DNA of 64,000 nucleotides from Minisyncoccota bacterium. Its GTDB lineage: Bacteria > Patescibacteriota > Minisyncoccia > Phycocordibacterales > CAIZLB01. The notes under the pieces were generated by a model. That model searched no databases, was not told where the DNA came from, and worked only from the letters and a program-made list of their open reading frames with translations. Positions 1,770-59,680 of this stretch are shown here, piece after piece. The translations under genes and the position numbers were made by a program. The stretch spans positions 4,465 to 68,464 of the forward strand of contig JAIPIA010000001.1 of assembly GCA_021734945.1 (NCBI GenBank). Direction: 5' to 3'. Every line of letters starts with the position of its first letter. Positions within the stretch are counted from its first letter, which is position 1.

Positions 1770-2039
1770 ATTTGTGGTCCTCTATCTTTGTACTTATTGT
1801 TTTTTTCTTCACGCAATTATAGAAATATATATTACATCAAATTACACCAAATCTGGTTTAATAAGTTGAAAATATATACTTTTATTTGTAAGACCAAGGA
1901 GATTGTGGTGGTCTATGCGCGCAGATAAGGAGATTAATCTCTGTTTATAAGATTACTACCTAATATTAATAAAATCAAGGTATTGTTTATATTTACTTGT
2001 TGAAGGCTGTATATTTGTGTAGTATTTACTTAATTAATT

Positions 2040-2831
2040 ATGGCTAAAGAAAACTTGTTAGCAAAAAAGAAGATTCAACAGGTCGCAAAAGTTCAGTCAA
2101 AGAAGCCTGTTACATTCCATCTCATAACTCTCTTTCCAGAGTCTTTTGCCTCATACCTCAATGAGTCTATTCTGGCGCGAGCACAGAAGGATAAGCTTAT
2201 ATCTGTTAAGTATTATAATCCTAGAGATTTTGTAAAACCGACTGGTGCTCAGAAAAAGAACGAACGACCATACCTACGAGTTGATGATAAGCCATATGGT
2301 GGAGGTCCTGGAATGGTTATGCAGGCCGAACCTATTTTAAAAGCTATTGAAAAAGCTCTAAAAAGCACCTCTAAGGGAGCCTCTAAAAAATTGTCTAAAA
2401 AGACTCTTATCGTCTTTCTCGCACCGTCTGGCGAACAGTTCACAAACACTCTTGGTACGACATATGCAAAAGAATATTCAGACATCATTGTAATCTGTGG
2501 AAGATATGAAGGAATAGACGCACGCATCAAAAAAGTTTTTAAAATGGTTGATATAACAGTTGGACCTTTTGTTACAACAGGTGGCGAACTCCCAGCTATG
2601 ATAATGATAGACGTGATTGCACGACAGATACCTGGAGTACTTGGAAATTTTGACAGTAGGGAAGAATCTCGAGCCTCATCTCGTGACTCGTATACTCGTC
2701 CAGAAGTTTTGATGTATAAAGGAAAGAAATATAAAGTGCCTGAAGTTCTCTTGTCAGGGAATCACAAACTTATAGATGAATGGAGGGTAAGTGAAGAGAG
2801 AAAAGGTGGTGAAAGGAAGCTTACAGTTTAA
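2040..2831 (+). CDS. trmD: tRNA (guanine37-N1)-methyltransferase TrmD, with a Lys-rich N-terminal extension
   Basis: TrmD signatures YGGGPGMVM, CGRYEGIDARI and TGGELPAMIMIDVIAR. About 25-aa K-rich N-terminus MAKENLLAKKKIQQVAKVQSKKP. Confidence 0.9.
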   Translation: MAKENLLAKKKIQQVAKVQSKKPVTFHLITLFPESFASYLNESILARAQKDKLISVKYYNPRDFVKPTGAQKKNERPYLRVDDKPYGGGPGMVMQAEPILKAIEKALKSTSKGASKKLSKKTLIVFLAPSGEQFTNTLGTTYAKEYSDIIVICGRYEGIDARIKKVFKMVDITVGPFVTTGGELPAMIMIDVIARQIPGVLGNFDSREESRASSRDSYTRPEVLMYKGKKYKVPEVLLSGNHKLIDEWRVSEERKGGERKLTV

Positions 2832-2855
2832 ACAAAGAATTCTTCTAAAAGTCCT

Positions 2856-2884
2856 TTGAATATAAGCCAGTAATAATGTATAAT
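2856..2884 (+). promoter_or_regulatory. sigma70-like promoter upstream of the giant surface-protein gene
   Basis: -35 TTGAAT (2856-2861), 17-nt spacer, extended -10 TGtTATAAT (2877-2884). The ATG is at 2930. Confidence 0.35.
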
Positions 2885-2929
2885 TTACAGTATATTTTAT
2901 ATTTATTCAGAAAATTATAAAAACTTTGC

Positions 2930-5900
2930 ATGCTATCAAAATATAAAAATAGAAAATTATATGTCTCTCTTTTGCTTGTATGTTTTCTTGTTGTTTTTTC
3001 TTTGATAAAATTTAATTCTGTATCAGCGGCAACTACCTCAGCCCCAAGAAGTCTTGGTGGTTCAATCACCTCATCTACTTCGATTACTCTTACTTGGCTT
3101 CCACCTGCTGTAGGTGCAGCTACAGTTACTGATTATTTAGTTGAATACAAGCTCTCAGCCGATTCATCATGGACAACATTTACTGATGGTGTATCGACTG
3201 CTACAACCACAACAGTTACAGGGCTTACAAATGGCTCAAACTATGATTTTCGTATATCAGCTATCAATATCGATGGGACGAGCACTCCCTCATATGTGAT
3301 TTCAATAGTTTCATGGGTGTCGGCAACCGGTGGTACAGTAACAGAAGTTGGAGGTTATCGTCTTCATACATTTACATCAAGTAGTAGTATTTCATTTCAA
3401 AGTGGAGGATCAGTTGAAACACTTATCGTCGGTGGAGGTGGAGGTGGAGGCACTACTGTTGCTGGTGGAGGTGGAGCGGGAGGTGTTGTCTCAACTTCAA
3501 CTAATGTCTCATCAGGTACTCTAGCTGTTACAGTTGGTGGAGGTGGAGCGGGAGGCGTAAATGGTGCGGCTGGTGCCAATGGATCAAATGGTGCGACATC
3601 AACTTTTAATTCTATTAGTGCATCTGGAGGTGGAGCTGGTGCGGGTTTTAATACGGCTGGTTCGGCAGGTGCTTCAGGTGGAGGAACTGGTGCTAATAGT
3701 ACTGGTGCGGGAGGTACCGCTATTTCAGGGCAAGGTTTTGCTGGAGGTACTGGAGCGAGCGCTACTCTTAATGCTGGTGGAGGTGGAGGTGGAGCGGGAG
3801 GTGTTGGAGGTAATGGACTTAATGGGGTGGCAGGAAATGGAGGTACTGGTGTTCAGAGTTCAATTACAGGAACAGCTGTTTATTATGGAGGTGGAGGTGG
3901 GGGAGGAAGCCGAACTAGTTCTGGAGGTATTTCTGCCGGAGTTGGAGGTAATGGAGGTGGAGGTGCTGGAGGAATTTCAACAGTTGGATATGCCGGAACT
4001 GCAAACACTGGAGGTGGAGGAGGAGGAGGCGGTTTTAATGGAGCACATCTTGGTGGAGGTAATGGAGGAAGTGGAATAATTATAATTAGATATCCAGTAG
4101 TTTTCAGTGGAATTTTGCAAGTTCCAGTCATTTCTTCTGCTGTGTCAAATACTCAAAAAGTGACACTTGTTTGGTCGATAGGTCAAGGTTCATCTCCGCA
4201 GATTACAGATTTTAAGATTGAATACAAGCTCTCAGCCGATTCATCATGGACAACATTTACTGATGGTGTATCGACTGCTACAACCACAACAGTAACAGGG
4301 CTTACAAATGGTCAGAGCTATGACTTTAGAATTTCATCCATAAATTCTTCAAGTGCAACAAGTGATCCTTCAGATACTGTTACAGTAACACCAAATGTAT
4401 CAGTGCCGAGTACTCCACAAAATATTTTTATAACCGTTGGCTCCAGCACAAGAGCTATTCTCACATGGGATGCACCGGTGTTAGATAACGGCGCAAGTAC
4501 AACAGACTATCTTATCGAATACAAGCTCTCAGCCGATTCATCATGGACAACATTTACTGATGGTGTATCGACTGCTACAACCACAACAGTTACAGGGCTT
4601 TTAGATACTTTATCATATGATTTTCGGGTATCCGCTATTAATAGTGTGGGCACAAGTTCACCATCAAGTACCGTGACTGACACGCCGGGATATTTTGTAC
4701 TAGTTGATAATTTCGATACCTCTGTAATTAATACCTCTAAGTGGACTGAATTTGATGCTGCTGTTGGTGGTAGCGGAGGAAGTGCTGGTAATGTGCAACA
4801 GAGTGCTGGAAAACTTTCGGTTACTGGAAACAGCGCATGGGGACAAAACGGACTTCAATCTAATGCTACATTCAGTAGGTCATTTGGTGATGTTGAAGTC
4901 AAGGTAACCATGACTGGAAGCTGTACAGTAGGAACTAGTTTTAATTTTGGATATGGAGATATAAATTTTGGAGCAGCGGGTACGTACTCATATATTATAT
5001 CAAAAGCTGGTAGTTCATGGACTCTTTACTATTTCCAAAATGGGAGCAACTCCACTTCTGTTCCTATGTCGGGTATACCTTGTACAACGGGTAATGATGT
5101 GACTTTAAGGATGGTAGCCTTACAGGCTGGTGGAGTAAGTGTATTTGTAGGCACTTCAACAACCCCTGTTGCGACGGTGGCGAGTGGAACCTTTAATAAT
5201 AAAAAAGTATGGCTTCAGACAAACGGTAATGGGGATATTACTACTTTTGATAATCTTCGGGTGTCTGAACCATTGTCTTTACCCCTTGCTCCTGGATCAA
5301 TAGTTGTATCTCCTGCTGACTCTCAAGTAGATTTGTCTTGGGTGGCAGGCAACGCAAATGGTTCAACAATTACTGATTATCAATTACAGTATAAACTCCC
5401 TACAACCGCAACTTGGACTACTTTTAGTGATAGTGTCTCAACAAGTACTACGGGTAGTATTATGGGATTAACAAACGGTATTATATATAATTTTCGAGTT
5501 GTTCCAATAAGTAATAACGGTACGGGAACTCCTTCTGTTGCTGTAAGTTCAGCTGCTCGAATTACTACTCTTGCAGCTCCAACCGCCACTTCTGTTTCTA
5601 TACTTGGAACACCTACAGTTGATGAGACACTCCGTGGATATTATTTATTTGCTGACCCTAATGGAGATATTGAGGGTTCTTCCACATATAGATGGCTTGT
5701 ATCAAACACTGCTGGTGGTACATATACTCCAATCTCTGGTGCTATAAGTAACACTTATGTTGTAACTTCCAATGAGTCTGGAAAGTATCTCAAGTTTGAA
5801 GTAACTCCTGTATCTAGTATTGGGCCTTATGTGGGATCTGCAGTATTAAGTTCATCTTCATTGCAAGTTGCTACAACAAGTTATATCAATCACATTCTTT

Positions 5901-9469: not shown

Positions 9470-9687
9470 AGGAAAATTTTATTTTAACCTTGACACCCTA
9501 TGTCAACAACACTACCCACAAGCTCCAAAAACGCCTATAAATAAGACCCCTCAGTAGTCCACACCTTTGTCAACATTGACTAATTGACACCTGTGGATAA
9601 ATCGTTTAATATAAGAATCCTGTGTAAGACGATTGAGTTTTGACCGGCTCTTCGCAGAAACTCCTTATCACCTAGCTTAGTGAGAGA

Positions 9688-9770
9688 CATGAAAGATATA
9701 TCTATCTTTCATGTCCGAACGAGTGACGGTGATATATGAGGGTAAACCTCATATATTTATAGCTTTATTT
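9688..9770 (+). promoter_or_regulatory. two strong hairpins in the rpoB upstream leader; the second is followed by a T-rich tract
   Basis: Perfect 10-bp stem catgaaagat/atctttcatg (9688-9713). 8-bp stem atatgagg/cctcatat (9734-9754) followed by atttatagctttatttt. Could be a terminator or attenuator upstream of rpoB. Confidence 0.3.
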
Positions 9771-10014
9771 TGCATATTCAAACCTTTAATTATTTATCTT
9801 AAATACACACCTTCAGCTCAATATTGGGTCAACAATGTTTCTGGAGGTGTTTGTTTAATTTATTAATTCTAGAAATGTTTATAAAAATAATTCTTTAAAA
9901 AAGTAGAGTGCCGATTTGTACTAAAATGCAATGACAGCAAATGACTGAATAAGACCTTTATTAGATCGGAAACAATTTTCGTAAATTTAAACGCATAAAA
10001 CGCTCACAATATTT

Positions 10015-13000
10015 ATGTCTCGACCAAAGAAATATTTTTCACGTTTCAAGGAACCGCTCACACCGCTTCCAAACTTAGTAGAAGGACAGCTCGACTCATA
10101 TAAATGGCTCCTTGAAAAAGGACTTAAAACTGTATTTGATGAGTTCGTAGGGATTAAGGATTATTCAGACAAAAAGTTCGAACTTGATTTTACAGGCTTT
10201 GAACTCGTAAAACCAAAGTACGACGAATTTTACGCTAAAGAAAATAAGCTCAACTATGAAGGAGGTCTTAAGGTGATGATTAAACTTAAGAATAAGATCT
10301 TCGGTTCTACAAAAGAACAGGAAGTATTCATGGCTGATTTCCCGATGATGACAAATCACGGTACTTTTATTATTAATGGTATTGAGCGACTTATAGTTCC
10401 ACAGATCATCCGTTCATACGGTGCTTTTTTTGTTTCTTCTGAAACAAAAGGTAAAAACTATTTCGGTGCAAAAATCATCCCTGCACGAGGTGCATGGATT
10501 GAACTTGAAAGTGACGCTGATGGAGCTATCTACGTGCGAATCGACCGAAAACGAAAGTTTGCAGTTACTTCACTTCTACGAGCTTTTGGCGCTGAAACAG
10601 ATTCAGACATCAAGGCGCTTTTCAAAGGAAATGAAAATGCAACATCATATATAGAGACAAGTCTTGCAAAAGATCACGCGAAGACAAAAGATGAAGCGTA
10701 TATCGAAATCCACAAGCGACTTCGAGATGGAGACCTCGCTACAGCTGAAAACGCTCGAGAATTCTTCACGGCTCTCATTGGTCCTGAGCGATATGACCTC
10801 TCAAAAGTAGGACGATTCCGATTTAATCAGCGATTTGAAAAATCAATGGAAGAGAAGGCGCTTGCCCAAATGACACTCTCTATTGATGACATCGTTGCTA
10901 TAATTTCAAAAATTATAGAACTTAACCTCAATCCAAACTCAATCAACGACGATATCGATCACCTCGGTTCACGACGTGTGCGATTTGTTGGTGAACTTCT
11001 CCAGCAGAAAATCCGAGTTGGTATGACACAGATTAAGCGAAACATTCAGAACCGAATGTCGACTATTGATACAGACGCTTCACTTCCAGTGCAGTTTGTT
11101 TCTCCACGTCCACTTCAGGCTCGAATTAAAGAATTCTTTACAACAAACCAGTTGTCACAGTTCATGTCACAGGAAAACATCCTTGCAGAAATTGAACACC
11201 TTCGACGTATTTCAGCCCTCGGTCAGGGAGGCCTTACACGAGAGCGAGCTGGTATTGAAGTTCGAGATGTGCACCCATCACATTATGGCCGAATCTGTCC
11301 TATTCATACACCTGAAGGTCAGAACATTGGTCTTGTATTGCAGCTTGCAACATATGCTCGAATCAACCACTTCGGTATGATCGAAACTCCATATGCAAAA
11401 GTGAAAGCCGGAAAGATCACAAAAGAAATTGTGTACCTGAATGCACTTGAAGAAGAAGGATTCAAGATCGCACATGCCGCAACTGAATATGATGCAGCTG
11501 GTCTTATAAAAGATCAGAATGTTGAAGTTCGAATCAAAGGTGAGCCAGTTATTATTGATCGTAGTGAAGTAGACTTTATAGATGTTGCACCTGAACAGGC
11601 ATTCTCAGTTTCTACATCTATGATTCCATTTATGAACCACGATGATGCCAACCGAGCTCTCATGGGTTCTAACATGCAGAAGCAGGCTACTCCTTGTATT
11701 GTTCCTGAGGCTCCACTTGTTGCAACAGGTATTGAATCAAAAGCAGCTGAAGATACAGGACGAGTTATTCTAGCTCCAGAGGATGGAACTATTACATATG
11801 TAGATGCATCAAAAGTCATTCTCAAGGGCGCTAAGCAGGATTATGAATATAAACTCACAATCTTCAACAGAACAAACCAGTTCACAGCTTCACACCAGCG
11901 ACCAACAGTTTCACTTAATCAGAAAGTTAAGCGAGGTGATGTGCTCGTAGATACATCTACATCTGTAGATGGTCAGATGGCGCTTGGACAAAACTGTCTC
12001 GTTGCATTCATGACATGGTCTGGATCAAACTATGAAGATGCGATTATTCTTTCAGAACGACTTGTAAAAGATTCAAAGTTTACAACTATTCACATTGAAG
12101 AATTCGTAATCAACGTACGAGATACAAAGCTTGGGCCCGAAGTTACAACTCACGATATTCCAAACGTAGGTGAAGGGCGACTCAAGAACCTCGATGTAGA
12201 TGGTATCGTCCGAGTAGGTGCTGAAGTTCGACCTGGAGATATCCTTGTTGGAAAAATTACTCCAAAGACAGAAACTCAGCTTACTCCAGAAGAACGACTC
12301 CTCCGATCTATCTTCGGTGAAAAATCACGAGATGTAAAAGATACATCAAAGCGATTGGAAAATGGAAAGAAAGGACGAGTTATTGGTATCAAGATTTTCT
12401 CTCGAGAAAAAGGAGACAAACTCGATTCTGGAATCCTCAAGCGAATTCACATTGAAGTTGCTGTTCTTCGAAACGTATCAGTGGGTGATAAGCTCGCTGG
12501 ACGACACGGAAACAAAGGTGTTATCTCACGAATTCTTCCAGTTGAAGATATGCCATATATGGCAGACGGAACTCCTGTGGATGTAATTCTTACTCCACTC
12601 GGTGTACCTTCACGTATGAACCTCGGTCAGATTCTCGAACTCCACCTCGGTCTTGCTGCAAAAGCTCTCAACTACCAAGCTATCGTTCCACCATTCATGG
12701 GTGCTACTGTAGATGAAGTAAAAGAGGAGCTTGTTAAAGCTGGATACAATGAGACTGGAAAAATGAAACTATTTGACGGACGAACAGGTGAAGCGTTTGC
12801 ACAGGATATTGCGGTTGGTTACATGTACATATTGAAACTTCACCACATGGTTGATGACAAGATTCACATGCGATCTATTGGTCCCTACTCTCTCATTACT
12901 CAGCAACCACTTGGAGGTAAAGCTCAAGGAGGAGGTCAGAGATTCGGAGAAATGGAAGTGTGGGCACTCGCTGGTTATGGAGCAGCTCATACTCTTCGAG

Positions 13001-29975: not shown

Positions 29976-30884
29976 ATGAATGTAATCTCCAAAGACGAAT
30001 TAATACGTGGTCTTCTTGATACCTCTGCACTAGAGGGTGGTTTAGACGTTTCAGGGGTTGTTGCAGATTCTGTTCCAGAGGTAAAAGGGTCTTTGGTTCA
30101 TACTATTAAGGGGATAATCCCAGTGTATAAGGAGTGGGGTAAGACGCCTCTTGAAATGCTTAATTTGCTCAAGGAAAAATATCCAAGAATAGCAGATCTG
30201 CCTTTGAGTTATGCAGGGAGACTTGATCCTCTCGCAGAGGGACTCATGCTTGTACTTGTAGGTGATACAAATCAGGATAGGGAAAAATACCTACATCTCG
30301 ATAAGACATATGAAGTCGAAATTCTATTTGGAGTAAAGACAGATACGGGTGACTTGTTTGGTATTCCAGAAGTTGAAGGGCATGTTTCTAGCTCGTTTGA
30401 ATCTTCTTCTAATGATTTAGAAGAAATACTAAAATCTTTTGTAGGCAAACAGCAGTTTCCATATCCTGTGTATTCATCTAAAACTGTGCAGGGTAAACCT
30501 CTTTTTCAGTGGATGAATGAAGGTAAAATAAGTGAGATTGAAATTCCTAAGACAGATGTCGAAATTTATTCGATTAAGACCTTAGGTAAATTACAGAACA
30601 TAAACGGCACAGCAATTTTAGAAAAAATTGAGAACTCACTTAAGATTGTAAAAGGAGATTTTAGATATAAAGAAATAGAGGAAGGATGGAATACTCTTCT
30701 TAGTGAAAAAGTGTGTCAGAATTTTTATACACTAAAAATTGAATGTTCATGTTCATCAGGTACGTATATGAGAGTTCTTGCTGAAGAAATCGGTAAGAAA
30801 GTTGATATGCCTTCTTTGGCGTATTCAATACGCCGAACACTGGTTGGGGAAGTTGATATTGTTAAAGCTATACATATTGTGTAG
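29976..30884 (+). CDS. truB: tRNA pseudouridine(55) synthase TruB, with an unusual ~45-aa N-terminal extension
   Basis: KEWGKTPLEML (substrate-binding motif), catalytic-Asp motif AGRLDPLAEGLMLVLVGDTNQ, KTYEVEILFGVKTDTGD. Only about 29 nt separate it from the divergent hisS start. Confidence 0.85.
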   Translation: MNVISKDELIRGLLDTSALEGGLDVSGVVADSVPEVKGSLVHTIKGIIPVYKEWGKTPLEMLNLLKEKYPRIADLPLSYAGRLDPLAEGLMLVLVGDTNQDREKYLHLDKTYEVEILFGVKTDTGDLFGIPEVEGHVSSSFESSSNDLEEILKSFVGKQQFPYPVYSSKTVQGKPLFQWMNEGKISEIEIPKTDVEIYSIKTLGKLQNINGTAILEKIENSLKIVKGDFRYKEIEEGWNTLLSEKVCQNFYTLKIECSCSSGTYMRVLAEEIGKKVDMPSLAYSIRRTLVGEVDIVKAIHIV

Positions 30885-42044: not shown

Positions 42045-42165
42045 AAACTAATAGCGTCAGACTGGTGAGAGTCTAACGCTAGATAGGTGTGTTGATCCGA
42101 AAACCAACCGTTGAGTGCCGTAGTCTGCGTGTCGCTTATCGCATTTTGCAGCCCTAGAGTGAGAG

Positions 42166-42798
42166 TCAATTCATGATGTTGTCCCATAAGTACTTAACCC
42201 GTCGGGTGAAGCTGGATTTGTTCCAGATACTTGTGGAATTTTTTTTGCCATCTTTACCATGTTCAATGGGTTCCTCATTCCACTTTCGTGTTATTGGATT
42301 CCATATATAGTGGAGGCTGAATCGAACTCGATCAGAGAGCTCGTTACATTGCATCAAGTAAAATGCTCTGCCAGTATTTTCATAGAGGATCGCGCAGCTT
42401 TCTGCGAACTCTCCGTCAAGCCATTGGATGCGTGCGTACCCGTCTTCATCCGATGCTACCTTCGTCGATGCTATTGCGAGTACAGTCAAGGATGCATATT
42501 CACGAACAAGGTATGGAGGTAAAAACCATAGTGCAAGTTTGAGAATATACTTGTATCTGACTCGACAGATGAGCAATCGCTCGCTGTCGGCGGAAAGGTT
42601 GATGCCTTCTTCTCCAAATTTAATTGACGGATTTTTCAAGTCCGCCGATTCCGGAAAAACGCAGTGCTCACTGTTTACCAGGAGTCTTTTGAGGAACTCG
42701 TGGAGGGTGATTGCTTTAACCTTGTTGAGCAGCTTTTTCCTTTTGTCAGGCCACTTAGGTGGTCTCCAGAGTATTAGTCTGGATGATGTCTTTTTCAT
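42166..42798 (-). CDS. hypothetical protein
   Basis: 210-aa ORF. No recognised motifs. Lies at the edge of a GC-rich intergenic block. Confidence 0.35.
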   Translation of the reverse strand: MKKTSSRLILWRPPKWPDKRKKLLNKVKAITLHEFLKRLLVNSEHCVFPESADLKNPSIKFGEEGINLSADSERLLICRVRYKYILKLALWFLPPYLVREYASLTVLAIASTKVASDEDGYARIQWLDGEFAESCAILYENTGRAFYLMQCNELSDRVRFSLHYIWNPITRKWNEEPIEHGKDGKKNSTSIWNKSSFTRRVKYLWDNIMN

Positions 42799-43449
42799 GG
42801 GGAAGCGGTTGGTTGGGGAGTTTGGTTGTATTTAATTTTCAAAAATCTGGAATAGGGGATGTCGTTTGGGGTCTCCGACGGCCATATTGCTAATATGTCC
42901 CTTAGTCGCGCTGAATCGCGTGGAGGTATTAGACCATAATATAGAATGATAGTCTATGGATGATTTTTTATTAAAATTATTTAAAAACATGGAGAGTCTG
43001 CAGGGTATTGACAGGCTTGGAATAATTAGTAATATTATTTTTAGTCCATGGACGCAAAGTCTCTCACAAGAGAACCTTACCGCAAGGTGAGTGCGAGCCC
43101 ATGGAAACATGGACTCTTTTGCTGAAGTGGCAACAAACCACAAACGCTACCACAACAAACAGAGGATAAATACCATGAAGAGCACCTTCCAAAAGTTCAC
43201 CGCCAAGGTTTCGGCATTCTTCGCCTGCTTCGCCGCCGAAACCAAGGTTGGCACTGCCTAGTCCTGGACGCCGTCTTCACGGCATCCAGGCGCCATAATC
43301 TAAAAGCATAAAATAGCTAGTACATGTACAAAAACGTCGCTTTCTATCCCACAAGAAACCGGTCATTGTACCTTCTCCTTGTCTCGGACTGACGACATCA
43401 AGTAAGTCATGTATGTGCGCCCCAACGAGCTCTACGAAAGTATCTCACT

Positions 43450-43490
43450 GGACCCCTCTCACGCTCTGCGCGAGGGGTCCTTTTATTTTT
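43450..43490 (+). terminator. strong Rho-independent terminator (plus strand) ending a GC-rich ORF-poor segment upstream of dnaX
   Basis: ggacccctc-tcacgctctgcgc-gaggggtcc followed by ttttattttt. Confidence 0.7.
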
Positions 43491-43608
43491 GTATATTTTG
43501 TAATATTTCAAGATTTTCGAACACTTTAGATAAACCTCTTTATCTTTTCATTTCTCATAAACTTTACTCTCTCGCCCATATCACTCCTCTGATATATAAT
43601 GTCCTCAT

Positions 43609-44778
43609 ATGACATCTACAAATCACGCATCTAACGGCGGTGCCACACACTCATCAACAGGACAGACTTCATCACCTGCAAAACCCCACCTTTCTTTATA
43701 CAGAAAATATCGACCGCATACATTTGCTGATGTTGTTGGACAGTCCCATATTGTGGACGTACTCAAACAGTCTGTTGAAAAGGGAACTGTTGGGCATGCA
43801 TATCTTTTTTGTGGATCACGTGGAACTGGTAAGACATCTATTGCACGTATCTTTGCGCGAGCACTTGGTACGACTATAAACGACTTGTATGAAATTGATG
43901 CCGCATCAAATACAAGTGTTGATGATATTCGAGAACTTTCTGAAGCGGTACATACAGTGCCACTTGAATCAAAATACAAAGTATACATTTTGGACGAAGT
44001 CCACATGCTTTCAAAAGCGGCGTTTAACGCATTTCTCAAAACACTTGAAGAACCACCAAAGCATGTCATCTTTATTCTCGCTACAACTGAAACAGAAAAA
44101 CTTCCAGATACAATAGTGTCACGATGTGAGGTGTACAATTTCAAAAAACCAACAGCTGAAATGTTGAAGAGTCATGTACTTGATATTGCACAAAAAGAGG
44201 GAGCTGAAATTGAAACATCTGCAGCAGAACTTGTTGCATTACTTGGTGATGGATCTTTCCGAGACACACTCAGTACATTACAAAAAGTGTTGAGCTATAC
44301 AGGTACAGATAGTAATGCTACACATGGTTCAACTGATGGTGCCAGTGGTACGAAAAAAAGTGCAACAATAACTCTCGAACAAGTTGAACAAATTACAGGT
44401 GCACCAAAAGCAGTTGTGGTTTCTGATTTTGTAAAAGGTCTTGTACTCAAAGATGCCAGTCTTGCATTAACTGCGCTCGGTACAGCCGGACGAGAAAATC
44501 TCGATATGAAAGTATTTGCAAAGCTTGCTATGACGAGACTACGATACATGCTCATGCGAACAATTGCAGAAAAAGAGGCGAGCGTGCTTGCAAGTGATTT
44601 GTCTGCTGGTGATGTAGTTATGTTTAATGATTTGGCGAAACAGGTAACAGGTCAGCAGATTGCAGGAGTGCTCAAACGAATGCTTGAGGTATATCACTCA
44701 ATAGGTAAAACATATGTACAGAGTTTGCCACTTGAGCTTGTGGTTGGGGAGGTTGTAGGTTCAGCTGTGGGGAAGTAG
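43609..44778 (+). CDS. dnaX: DNA polymerase III subunit gamma/tau (short form)
   Basis: YRPHTFADVVGQSHIV, Walker A GSRGTGKTS, Walker B YILDEVHMLS, sensor-1 ILATTE, SRCEVYNF. Confidence 0.88.
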   Translation: MTSTNHASNGGATHSSTGQTSSPAKPHLSLYRKYRPHTFADVVGQSHIVDVLKQSVEKGTVGHAYLFCGSRGTGKTSIARIFARALGTTINDLYEIDAASNTSVDDIRELSEAVHTVPLESKYKVYILDEVHMLSKAAFNAFLKTLEEPPKHVIFILATTETEKLPDTIVSRCEVYNFKKPTAEMLKSHVLDIAQKEGAEIETSAAELVALLGDGSFRDTLSTLQKVLSYTGTDSNATHGSTDGASGTKKSATITLEQVEQITGAPKAVVVSDFVKGLVLKDASLALTALGTAGRENLDMKVFAKLAMTRLRYMLMRTIAEKEASVLASDLSAGDVVMFNDLAKQVTGQQIAGVLKRMLEVYHSIGKTYVQSLPLELVVGEVVGSAVGK

Positions 44779-44910: not shown

Positions 44911-44981
44911 TGGGAGATCGTCTAATGGTAGGACAACAGATTTTGGTTCTGTTTATCTAGGTTCGAGTCCTAGTCTCCCAG
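44911..44981 (+). tRNA. tRNA-Gln (anticodon TTG)
   Basis: Hand-folded. Acceptor TGGGAGA/TCTCCCA, D arm GTCT-AATGGTA-GGAC, anticodon arm ACAGA-TTTTGGT-TCTGT (U33, TTG, G37), T arm CTAGG-TTCGAGT-CCTAG, discriminator G. Confidence 0.75.
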
Positions 44982-59340: not shown

Positions 59341-59510
59341 TAGGTCAATTATAGCAAAAAGTAGACTGTTGGTAACCCGAGCTTCGCAAGGCTCTATATC
59401 TAAGCTAGAGTCTAGATAGATAGCTCTGTTTTTGCTATCATGTACTTATACAACAAAGACCTAACCCCTTAGAAAACGCTTAGTTTCCTAAGGATATGGT
59501 CGGAATAATA

Positions 59511-59680
59511 AAACCGCTACAGTATAGAAGACTCCTCGTCAGAGTCACTGTAGCGGTCGCGTACCCGAAAGGGTATGTGGGTCTGATCGAAAGATTGGAT
59601 CACAATGGCGGGGAGTCTTCTGTCTCACGACTCAAGGCTTCTTGCTAATTACCAGCATTAAGTCAAAACCGCTACAGTGA
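59511..59680 (+). repeat. GC-rich structured element bounded by 13-bp direct repeats (aaaccgctacagt) with nested inverted repeats
   Basis: The direct repeat sits at 59511-59523 and 59666-59678, with an inverted copy actgtagcggt at 59547-59557. gaagactcc (59527) pairs with ggagtcttc (59612). tacccGAAAgggta is a tetraloop hairpin. GC content is far above the flanks. Confidence 0.4.

Follow-up and report, generated by a model that had tools for sequence, protein, structure and literature searches.

A candidate structured non-coding RNA gene directly upstream of dnaX in a Paceibacterota genome

In Firmicutes, ffs, the SRP RNA gene, lies upstream of dnaX. The locus described here resembles ffs/scr in that a putative non-coding RNA gene stands immediately 5' of dnaX on the same strand, but the predicted RNA (43042-43495, +), at ~450 nt, is about four times as long as 4.5S RNA, is hypervariable instead of universally conserved, and matches no SRP model. 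With 6S RNA (ssrS) it shares fast evolution, structure and a stand-alone character; it differs in being more than twice as long, in having no Rfam 6S match, and in its predicted multi-domain fold, which lacks the rod with a central bubble. Bacteria of the candidate phyla radiation, to which the present genome belongs, are uncultivated and have tiny genomes, and to our knowledge almost nothing is known about their regulatory RNAs.

Stand-alone sRNA genes of the kind found in surveys of GC-rich intergenic regions (PMC6429828, PMC8632094) carry a promoter and a Rho-independent terminator of their own, are richer in GC than the AT-rich genomes around them, fold into several hairpins with single-stranded loops, show no coding signal and occur in a narrow phylogenetic range; the predicted unit is like them in each of these respects. 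It is, however, longer than most base-pairing sRNAs, and its body is replaced by unalignable types among close relatives. SgrS/SgrT, RNAIII/hld and the type I toxin mRNAs combine, as the unit does, a structured RNA with a short ORF whose start codon lies hidden in a helix. Unlike in those systems, the ORF of the unit is unconserved, uses rare codons and has no hydrophobic segment of membrane length, nor is there an evident antisense partner such as type I toxin mRNAs have.

We propose that the segment at ~43042-43495 (+) of the window, the whole 64,000-nt stretch of DNA that was analysed, is a gene for a structured non-coding RNA that stands as a transcription unit of its own and is confined to one Paceibacterota clade; its terminator would also insulate a leaderless dnaX, and its product would act in trans. 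To this reading we give about an even chance of being correct. Its main rivals, both unlikely, are, in descending order, a rapidly decaying spacer without function whose terminator insulates dnaX, and a transcript that encodes a small protein or has a dual function.

The segment lies in a gap (42799-43608) between an orphan gene at 42166-42798 (-) and dnaX at 43609-44778 (+). DnaX of the window is identical to an NCBI protein assigned to 'Candidatus Pacebacteria', and the genome belongs to Paceibacterota (Parcubacteria, candidate phyla radiation). The gap is without a credible gene and holds short ORFs only, and the public gene calls of the identical contig place nothing within it, which bears out its description in the first-pass annotation as ORF-poor. 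The same annotation called the block at 42800-43490 GC-rich; this holds for 43041-43495 (GC 0.49) but not for 42800-43040 (0.378, against a window mean of 0.390). GC at 43100-43399 reaches the 98th percentile among 300-nt windows, and the predicted RNA is C- and A-rich and G-poor. In AT-rich genomes, raised GC classically marks structured RNA, and searches of GC-rich intergenic regions exploit this (PMC6429828).

As to extent, the block as first delimited stands for about 43040-43495, whereas its first ~240 nt fall outside the element and more likely serve the orphan gene as divergent promoter and 5' region. The divergent control region between that gene and the RNA unit (42799-43007; GC 0.378, folding z ~-1) probably lies outside the RNA. 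Within this region is the motif ATTAGACCATAATA (42928-42941), which is conserved in the related loci L001, L014, L040, L041 and L043 and in the sequence types A and B described below, and which is the only gap sequence kept in nearly all relatives. An origin of replication was considered for the gap and rejected: there is no DnaA-like box in it, let alone a cluster, window-wide box counts equal chance, and the cumulative skew climbs steadily across the region with no switch. Beyond the gap, a 12-bp hairpin with T-runs at 42048-42107, between the convergent orphan gene and dus, the gene of tRNA-dihydrouridine synthase, has the look of a bidirectional terminator, and a tRNA-Gln (UUG) gene at 44911-44981 (+) lies directly 3' of dnaX, where some tRNA gene is found in many related loci.

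SRP RNA, RNase P RNA, tmRNA and 6S RNA had been named as candidates for the block, with the ffs-dnaX linkage as a pointer. Neither idea survived an Infernal-type Rfam scan, which the first-pass annotation had itself suggested: no family matched the gap at the gathering score and none of the four did at E<=10, the scan of 42600-43700 at E<=10 yielding only a terminator look-alike and a 24-nt fragment in the gap. Equivalent regions of 20-27 related loci gave no match at gathering or at permissive (E<=1-5) thresholds. Outside the gap, Rfam recognised two tRNAs and one LOOT RNA in the window, the latter (RF03000) at 59458-59601 (+) with 51.8 bits, the gathering threshold being 46.4; ARAGORN found tRNA-Phe and tRNA-Gln only in the window, and no tmRNA. 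Thus, the four named families are unsupported, and the linkage of ffs to dnaX does not hold in this lineage.

The hallmarks of the individual families gave the same picture. There was no covariance match including the helix 8/domain IV loops and the GNAR tetraloop of SRP RNA, no RNase P type A/B match with the conserved P4 regions, and no tRNA-like domain with a tag reading frame as in tmRNA; for 6S RNA there was neither a covariance match nor a ~180-nt rod with a large central bubble, the prediction being a chain of domains of ~450 nt. By eye, neither the SRP domain IV motif nor a GAGGAAAGUCC-like RNase P motif was seen in the gap. A very divergent form of one of these universal RNAs is the most improbable of the readings that we weighed. 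It could draw on the position of ffs in Firmicutes and on the rapid evolution of 6S RNA, which models often fail to detect. Against it stand the negative Rfam and ARAGORN searches, the multi-domain fold and a length that exceeds that of 4.5S and 6S RNA; moreover, the unit is unalignable between genomes with 90% identical dnaX, which is not expected of a universal RNA.

At the sequence level, a promoter and an intrinsic terminator frame the non-coding stretch, as in a stand-alone sRNA gene. The sigma-70-like promoter TTGACA-16-TAATAT (43008-43035, +), absent from the first-pass annotation, lies just 5' of the GC-rich part and predicts a transcription start at ~43042. Sites with at least 10 of 12 promoter matches number ~30 in 64 kb on both strands, this one among them, and only two of those on the plus strand, this and one other, have a perfect TTGACA. 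L040 carries TTGACA-17-TAATAT at the equivalent relative position. The terminator (43434-43495, +) consists of the stem 43450-43458/43472-43480 (GGACCCCTC/GAGGGGTCC) and a T-run (43481-43491), with an A-rich 5' flank able to pair with the T-run. At ~-24 kcal/mol it ranks first on the plus strand in a scan of the window, confirming that it is as strong as had been claimed; a simple terminator scan missed the 43450-43480 stem because its loop exceeds 8 nt.

Downstream of the RNA unit and outside it lie the promoter and start of dnaX (43570-43611, +), with a -10 box TATAAT at 43595-43600 followed, after 8 nt, by the ATG at 43609. The sequence TTTTTAATATATAATGTCACCATATG at this promoter is near-invariant across relatives. 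Nearly all genes of the window lack a Shine-Dalgarno (SD) motif, and many have a TATAAT-like -10 box 5-9 nt before the ATG (examples are the starts at 29976 (+), 35139 (+), 43609 (+), 25905 (-) and 59340 (-)), which suggests that translation in this genome is mostly leaderless or SD-less. The anti-SD sequence is reported to be missing in about half of Parcubacteria (PMC9297842), and the SD-less genes of the window fit this. Most likely, judging from these starts, the dnaX mRNA is leaderless and has its own promoter, which would make the upstream unit a separate transcription unit.

The dnaX start also bears on the idea of a cis-acting dnaX leader, an attenuator or riboswitch-like element with a regulated terminator, for which the location directly 5' of dnaX, on the same strand and with a terminator at its end, would speak. 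We consider such a leader very unlikely. An attenuator or riboswitch would have no promoter between itself and its gene, but here a promoter-like box directly precedes the ATG of dnaX, and the near-invariant series of -10 TATAAT, 8 nt and ATG separates terminator and dnaX in all relatives, leaderless starts being usual. L011 and L021, which have no gap, keep the same dnaX start; the body of the element is hypervariable while DnaX is 85-94% identical; and no Rfam riboswitch or leader matches. The stop codon of the short ORF in the unit lies ~190 nt before the terminator stem.

Folding supports the unit. Excess stability over dinucleotide shuffles is confined to ~42900-43600 (z -2 to -4.9, both strands), the flanking coding windows lying mostly at z ~-1.8 to +1.6 with a few more negative. 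The stretch 43040-43495 has a z of -5.1 against shuffles, and of -2.8 without the terminator. Three hairpins quoted in the first-pass annotation are all present, at 42880-42900, 42907-42920 and 43263-43290; the stretch with the first two folds no better than shuffles (z ~-1).

At the 5' end of the predicted RNA is a three-way domain (43045-43105, +), in which the helix UCCAUGG/CCAUGGA closes two hairpins, one of them CUUACC-GCAA-GGUGAG (pair probabilities 0.76-0.93). Next comes a long imperfect hairpin (43108-43177, +) with the helix 43108-43112/43173-43177 (P = 0.72) and a 14-nt CA-rich apical loop at 43132-43145 (AACAAACCACAAAC; unpaired probability ~0.9). In the prediction, the 3' strand of this hairpin pairs with the start codon (AUG) of the short ORF. 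The 9-bp hairpin GGUUUCGGC/GCCGAAACC (43207-43243, +) has a 19-nt C/U-rich loop and a pair probability of 1.00, and the GC-rich hairpin (43263-43290, +) begins 2 bases past the stop codon of the ORF. To its 3' side stands the A-rich single-stranded motif AAAAGCATAAA (43302-43312, +); AAAAGCAWAAA has one match in the whole window, in this A-rich linker, against 0.32 expected window-wide. A long-range imperfect 3' hairpin domain (43320-43414, +; P ~0.73) follows. Predicted to be unpaired are the CA-rich segment 43132-43145, the C/U-rich segment 43216-43234 and the A-rich segment 43290-43319, which includes AAAAGCAUAAA.

The short ORF in the unit had been reported at 43182-43271; it exists, but it occupies 43175-43261 (+) and encodes 28 amino acids (MKSTFQKFTAKVSAFFACFAAETKVGTA, an MK...GTA peptide). 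Its synonymous-codon score is lower than that of 99.85% of equal-length gene windows, its GC3 is 0.78 against 0.30 for the genes of the window, and it draws on rare codons: five GCC, three ACC, and also AGC, TCG and GGC. The peptide has no homologue among 5.8 billion proteins and no Pfam match, and its hydrophobic run of ~10 residues would not span a membrane as a helix. A comparable ORF exists in L040 alone (23 codons, starting MK and ending GTA plus stop), and nine of the 11 differences between the two fall at codon positions 1 and 2. Translation of the 28-codon ORF is unlikely on these measures; the ORF is probably a by-product of T-poor composition, and 43175-43261 should not be called as a gene.

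The alternative that the unit is the mRNA of this peptide, its structured flanks serving as UTRs, possibly a dual-function sRNA or type I toxin-like transcript, has some footing in the A-rich, unstructured-looking stretch before ATG AAG, as at many genes here, in the equivalent place of the L040 ORF, and in the start codon kept in most other relatives as NTG-AAG-stop. We nevertheless find it unlikely. Besides the atypical codons, the paired AUG, the missing homologues and the short hydrophobic run, the changes between window and L040 avoid concentrating at position 3, and the ORFs of the relatives have two to five codons or are absent. A type I toxin-antitoxin system would moreover have a conserved small membrane-spanning peptide, and the present ORF is neither conserved nor membrane-spanning.

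At the spot equivalent to the ORF, most other relatives have NTG-AAG-stop, L031 has ATG-GAA-stop (ATG GAA TAG), L036 a five-codon ORF (GGGAGG-N6-ATG TTC GCA TAC TTC TAG), and L043 none. The two-codon ORF (A/T)TG AAG TA(G/A) recurs in type A and B units, often with GGAGG 5-10 nt upstream, which is odd for a lineage without SD use; it is found at 3541-3549 in L001, at 3218-3226 in L014, and at about 1437-1445 in L027, 2614-2622 in L028, 2594-2602 in L037 and 347-355 in L044. We considered reading this mini-ORF (SD-like GGAGG plus NTG-AAG-stop) as a leader peptide but decided against it: SD sequences are not in use in this genome (PMC9297842), L043 lacks the motif, and L031 and the window have altered forms of it.

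For comparison we used dnaX neighbourhoods from Paceibacterota/Parcubacteria MAGs with DnaX 84-90% identical. Nearly all share one layout: dus, the orphan gene on the minus strand, an ORF-free gap of 580-810 nt, and dnaX with its conserved promoter. Taken between the putative -10 box and the T-run, the unit is 420-520 nt long in every lineage, and all ten units of relatives fold above shuffles even without their terminators (z -1.5 to -3.5), with raised GC in each. The central sequence, in contrast to the flanks, falls into several types that are mutually unalignable by BLAST and nhmmer: type A (L014, L034, L027, L031), type B (L028, L037, L042, L043, L044, L001), the type of the window, and others in L036, L040 and L041. 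Some genomes with unalignable types have dnaX 90% identical at the nucleotide level and 75% at 4-fold sites. Dus is 75-88% and DnaX 85-94% identical, while most pairs of the orphan protein share just 21-40% identity. With its conserved edges and its divergent centre and orphan gene, the dus-dnaX interval is therefore a hypervariable island.

Within the types, selection and compensatory change could be seen. The 3' ~350 nt of type A are 88-92% identical between lineages in which dnaX is 85-87% identical overall and 64-71% at 4-fold sites, so that, as far as the alignments go, the 3' half of type A is shown to be under purifying selection; recent exchange instead of selection could also produce such conservation. 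Insertions and deletions in it span 1 or 2 nt, and coding is therefore excluded. Substitutions keep away from the predicted helices, which supports the structure indirectly: paired positions make up 16 of 66 variable columns, against 53% of all columns. The type B core forms two hairpins with 90% of cells paired, and six of its 12 pairs have changed on both sides; its covariation score exceeds that of all 500 shuffles, and the pairing collapses when partners are slid. For the type B terminator domain, a ~100-nt hairpin, three of 500 shuffles reach the observed score. The covariation support is moderate because the structures tested were drawn from the same small alignments (five to six sequences). 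Conservation and covariation, proposed in the first-pass annotation as a check, thus yielded compensatory pairs in type B and selection in type A, but none for the copy in the window, which has no close relative. The motif ATCAAGT recurs without a fixed position and was dropped.

These comparisons bear on the leading rival, a functionless spacer or decayed DNA in which only the dnaX-insulating terminator and the flanking promoters work and the hairpins are incidental. That the centre cannot be aligned between types even at 90% identical dnaX, that the models of types A and B fail on the window, that the adjoining orphan gene also evolves very fast, and that the folding z is equally negative on the minus strand across the gap are all what such a spacer would lead one to expect. 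Yet type A is more conserved in its 3' half than dnaX, the units keep to lengths of 420-520 nt, compensatory pairs occur in type B, and 10 of 10 units fold above shuffles with raised GC. Decay of a protein gene left no trace either: tblastx and tblastn against the gaps of relatives found nothing, a Pfam scan of all ten gap ORFs gave no significant match, and a 56-aa frame had no homologue among 5.8 billion proteins. The pseudogene reading was rejected, there being no residual protein similarity in any frame, and a spacer in general we consider unlikely.

How the window copy is linked to those of its relatives is a separate matter. Blastn and nhmmer against the relatives gave no match for its central part, and HMMs from types A and B did not detect it. 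The covariance model that we built on the type B core recovered all type B copies (E 1e-12 to 1e-21) but, also with filters off, missed L040, type A and the window. The unit of the window itself has no close relative, and its structure is for that reason without covariation support. Since the models miss the window copy, homology is argued from its position, its length, its architecture and some short motifs. Among the latter, AAAGCAAA stands directly after the corresponding variable hairpin in types A and B. With L040 the window shares the canonical promoter and similar sequence around the ORF start; a 40-nt local alignment of the two has 29 of 40 positions identical, a score that none of 300 shuffles reaches (p ~0.003). 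After the common TTGGCACNGCCTAG, L040 has a different 9-bp hairpin in place of the window's 43263-43290. The resemblance, weak but significant, suggests that the window copy is related to that of L040, and we infer that it has the same function as the copies of the relatives.

The other variable component of the island is the orphan gene, with counterparts in L001, L027, L028, L031, L034, L037, L040, L041 and L043. Between genomes that share 75-94% identity in Dus and DnaX, its protein reaches only 21-40%; neither Pfam nor PADLOC has a match for it, and just four clusters among 1.8 billion representative proteins contain it; a single-sequence AlphaFold model, with a pLDDT of 40, is unusable. 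On the sequences compared, the gene is very fast-evolving and clade-specific. No similarity was found to phage genomes. RNA and protein might be partners in a conflict-type module, a toxin-antitoxin or defence pair, given that both are hypervariable between conserved housekeeping genes and are predicted to be divergently transcribed from a common control region. However, the orphan protein matches nothing in PADLOC or Pfam, the RNA types do not track the protein groups, L036 has an RNA-like gap but no orphan gene, and no repeats, reverse transcriptase or nuclease lie nearby; we regard the pairing as improbable. Equally speculative is the broader view of the dus-dnaX interval as a two-part hypervariable island in which the RNA body is swapped like a cassette while promoter, terminator and short motifs stay fixed, which would amount to an RNA-based conflict or host-interaction system undescribed in the candidate phyla radiation.

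The dnaX neighbourhood appears to be recombination-prone. L041 has a 312-aa orphan ORF at 1990-2928 (-) filling its gap, and extra cargo 3' of dnaX includes an IS200-type Y1 transposase at 2151-2609 (+) in L044 and a serine recombinase at 2022-3626 (-) in L042.

We return to the reading of a stand-alone non-coding RNA gene. The idea of a structured non-coding RNA put forward in the first-pass annotation fares well in its general form, through the frame of promoter and terminator, the excess of folding, the non-coding character of the ORF and the units of the relatives, but not in the families it named. Transcription would start at TTGACA-16-TAATAT and stop at the strong intrinsic terminator, which would shield the leaderless dnaX promoter from read-through. 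Several hairpin domains would present the unpaired CA-rich, C/U-rich and A-rich segments, and through these exposed segments the RNA might act in trans, by base-pairing with other RNAs or by binding protein. Complementarity of the RNA to the 5' ends of the dnaX and orphan mRNAs was no better than that of shuffles. Transcription of the unit, the position of its 5' end and its action in trans are what we infer from the layout described above.

If true, a syntenic, selected and fast-diversifying RNA locus beside dnaX, an essential replication gene, would count among the few concrete sRNA candidates of the candidate phyla radiation and would offer a handle on gene regulation in these bacteria. For annotation the result is negative: the element is not an SRP RNA, RNase P RNA, tmRNA or 6S RNA gene.

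More distant Paceibacterota (L003, L004, L006, L007, L008 and L020, with DnaX 50-68% identical) have ORF-poor dus-dnaX stretches of 250-1000 nt that end in a terminator just 5' of a leaderless-looking dnaX and have no Rfam match; non-coding transcription units may generally be sited between dus and dnaX in the phylum. Elsewhere in the window, a second ORF-free gap of 545 nt (9470-10014) lies 5' of a 1064-aa ORF that begins at 10015. It contains TTGACA-17-TAATAT at 9584-9612 (+), a perfect TTATCCACA at 9592-9600 (-), and a strong terminator-like hairpin with a T-run at 9800-9857 (+), and could be another sRNA, of ~240 nt, or a leader.
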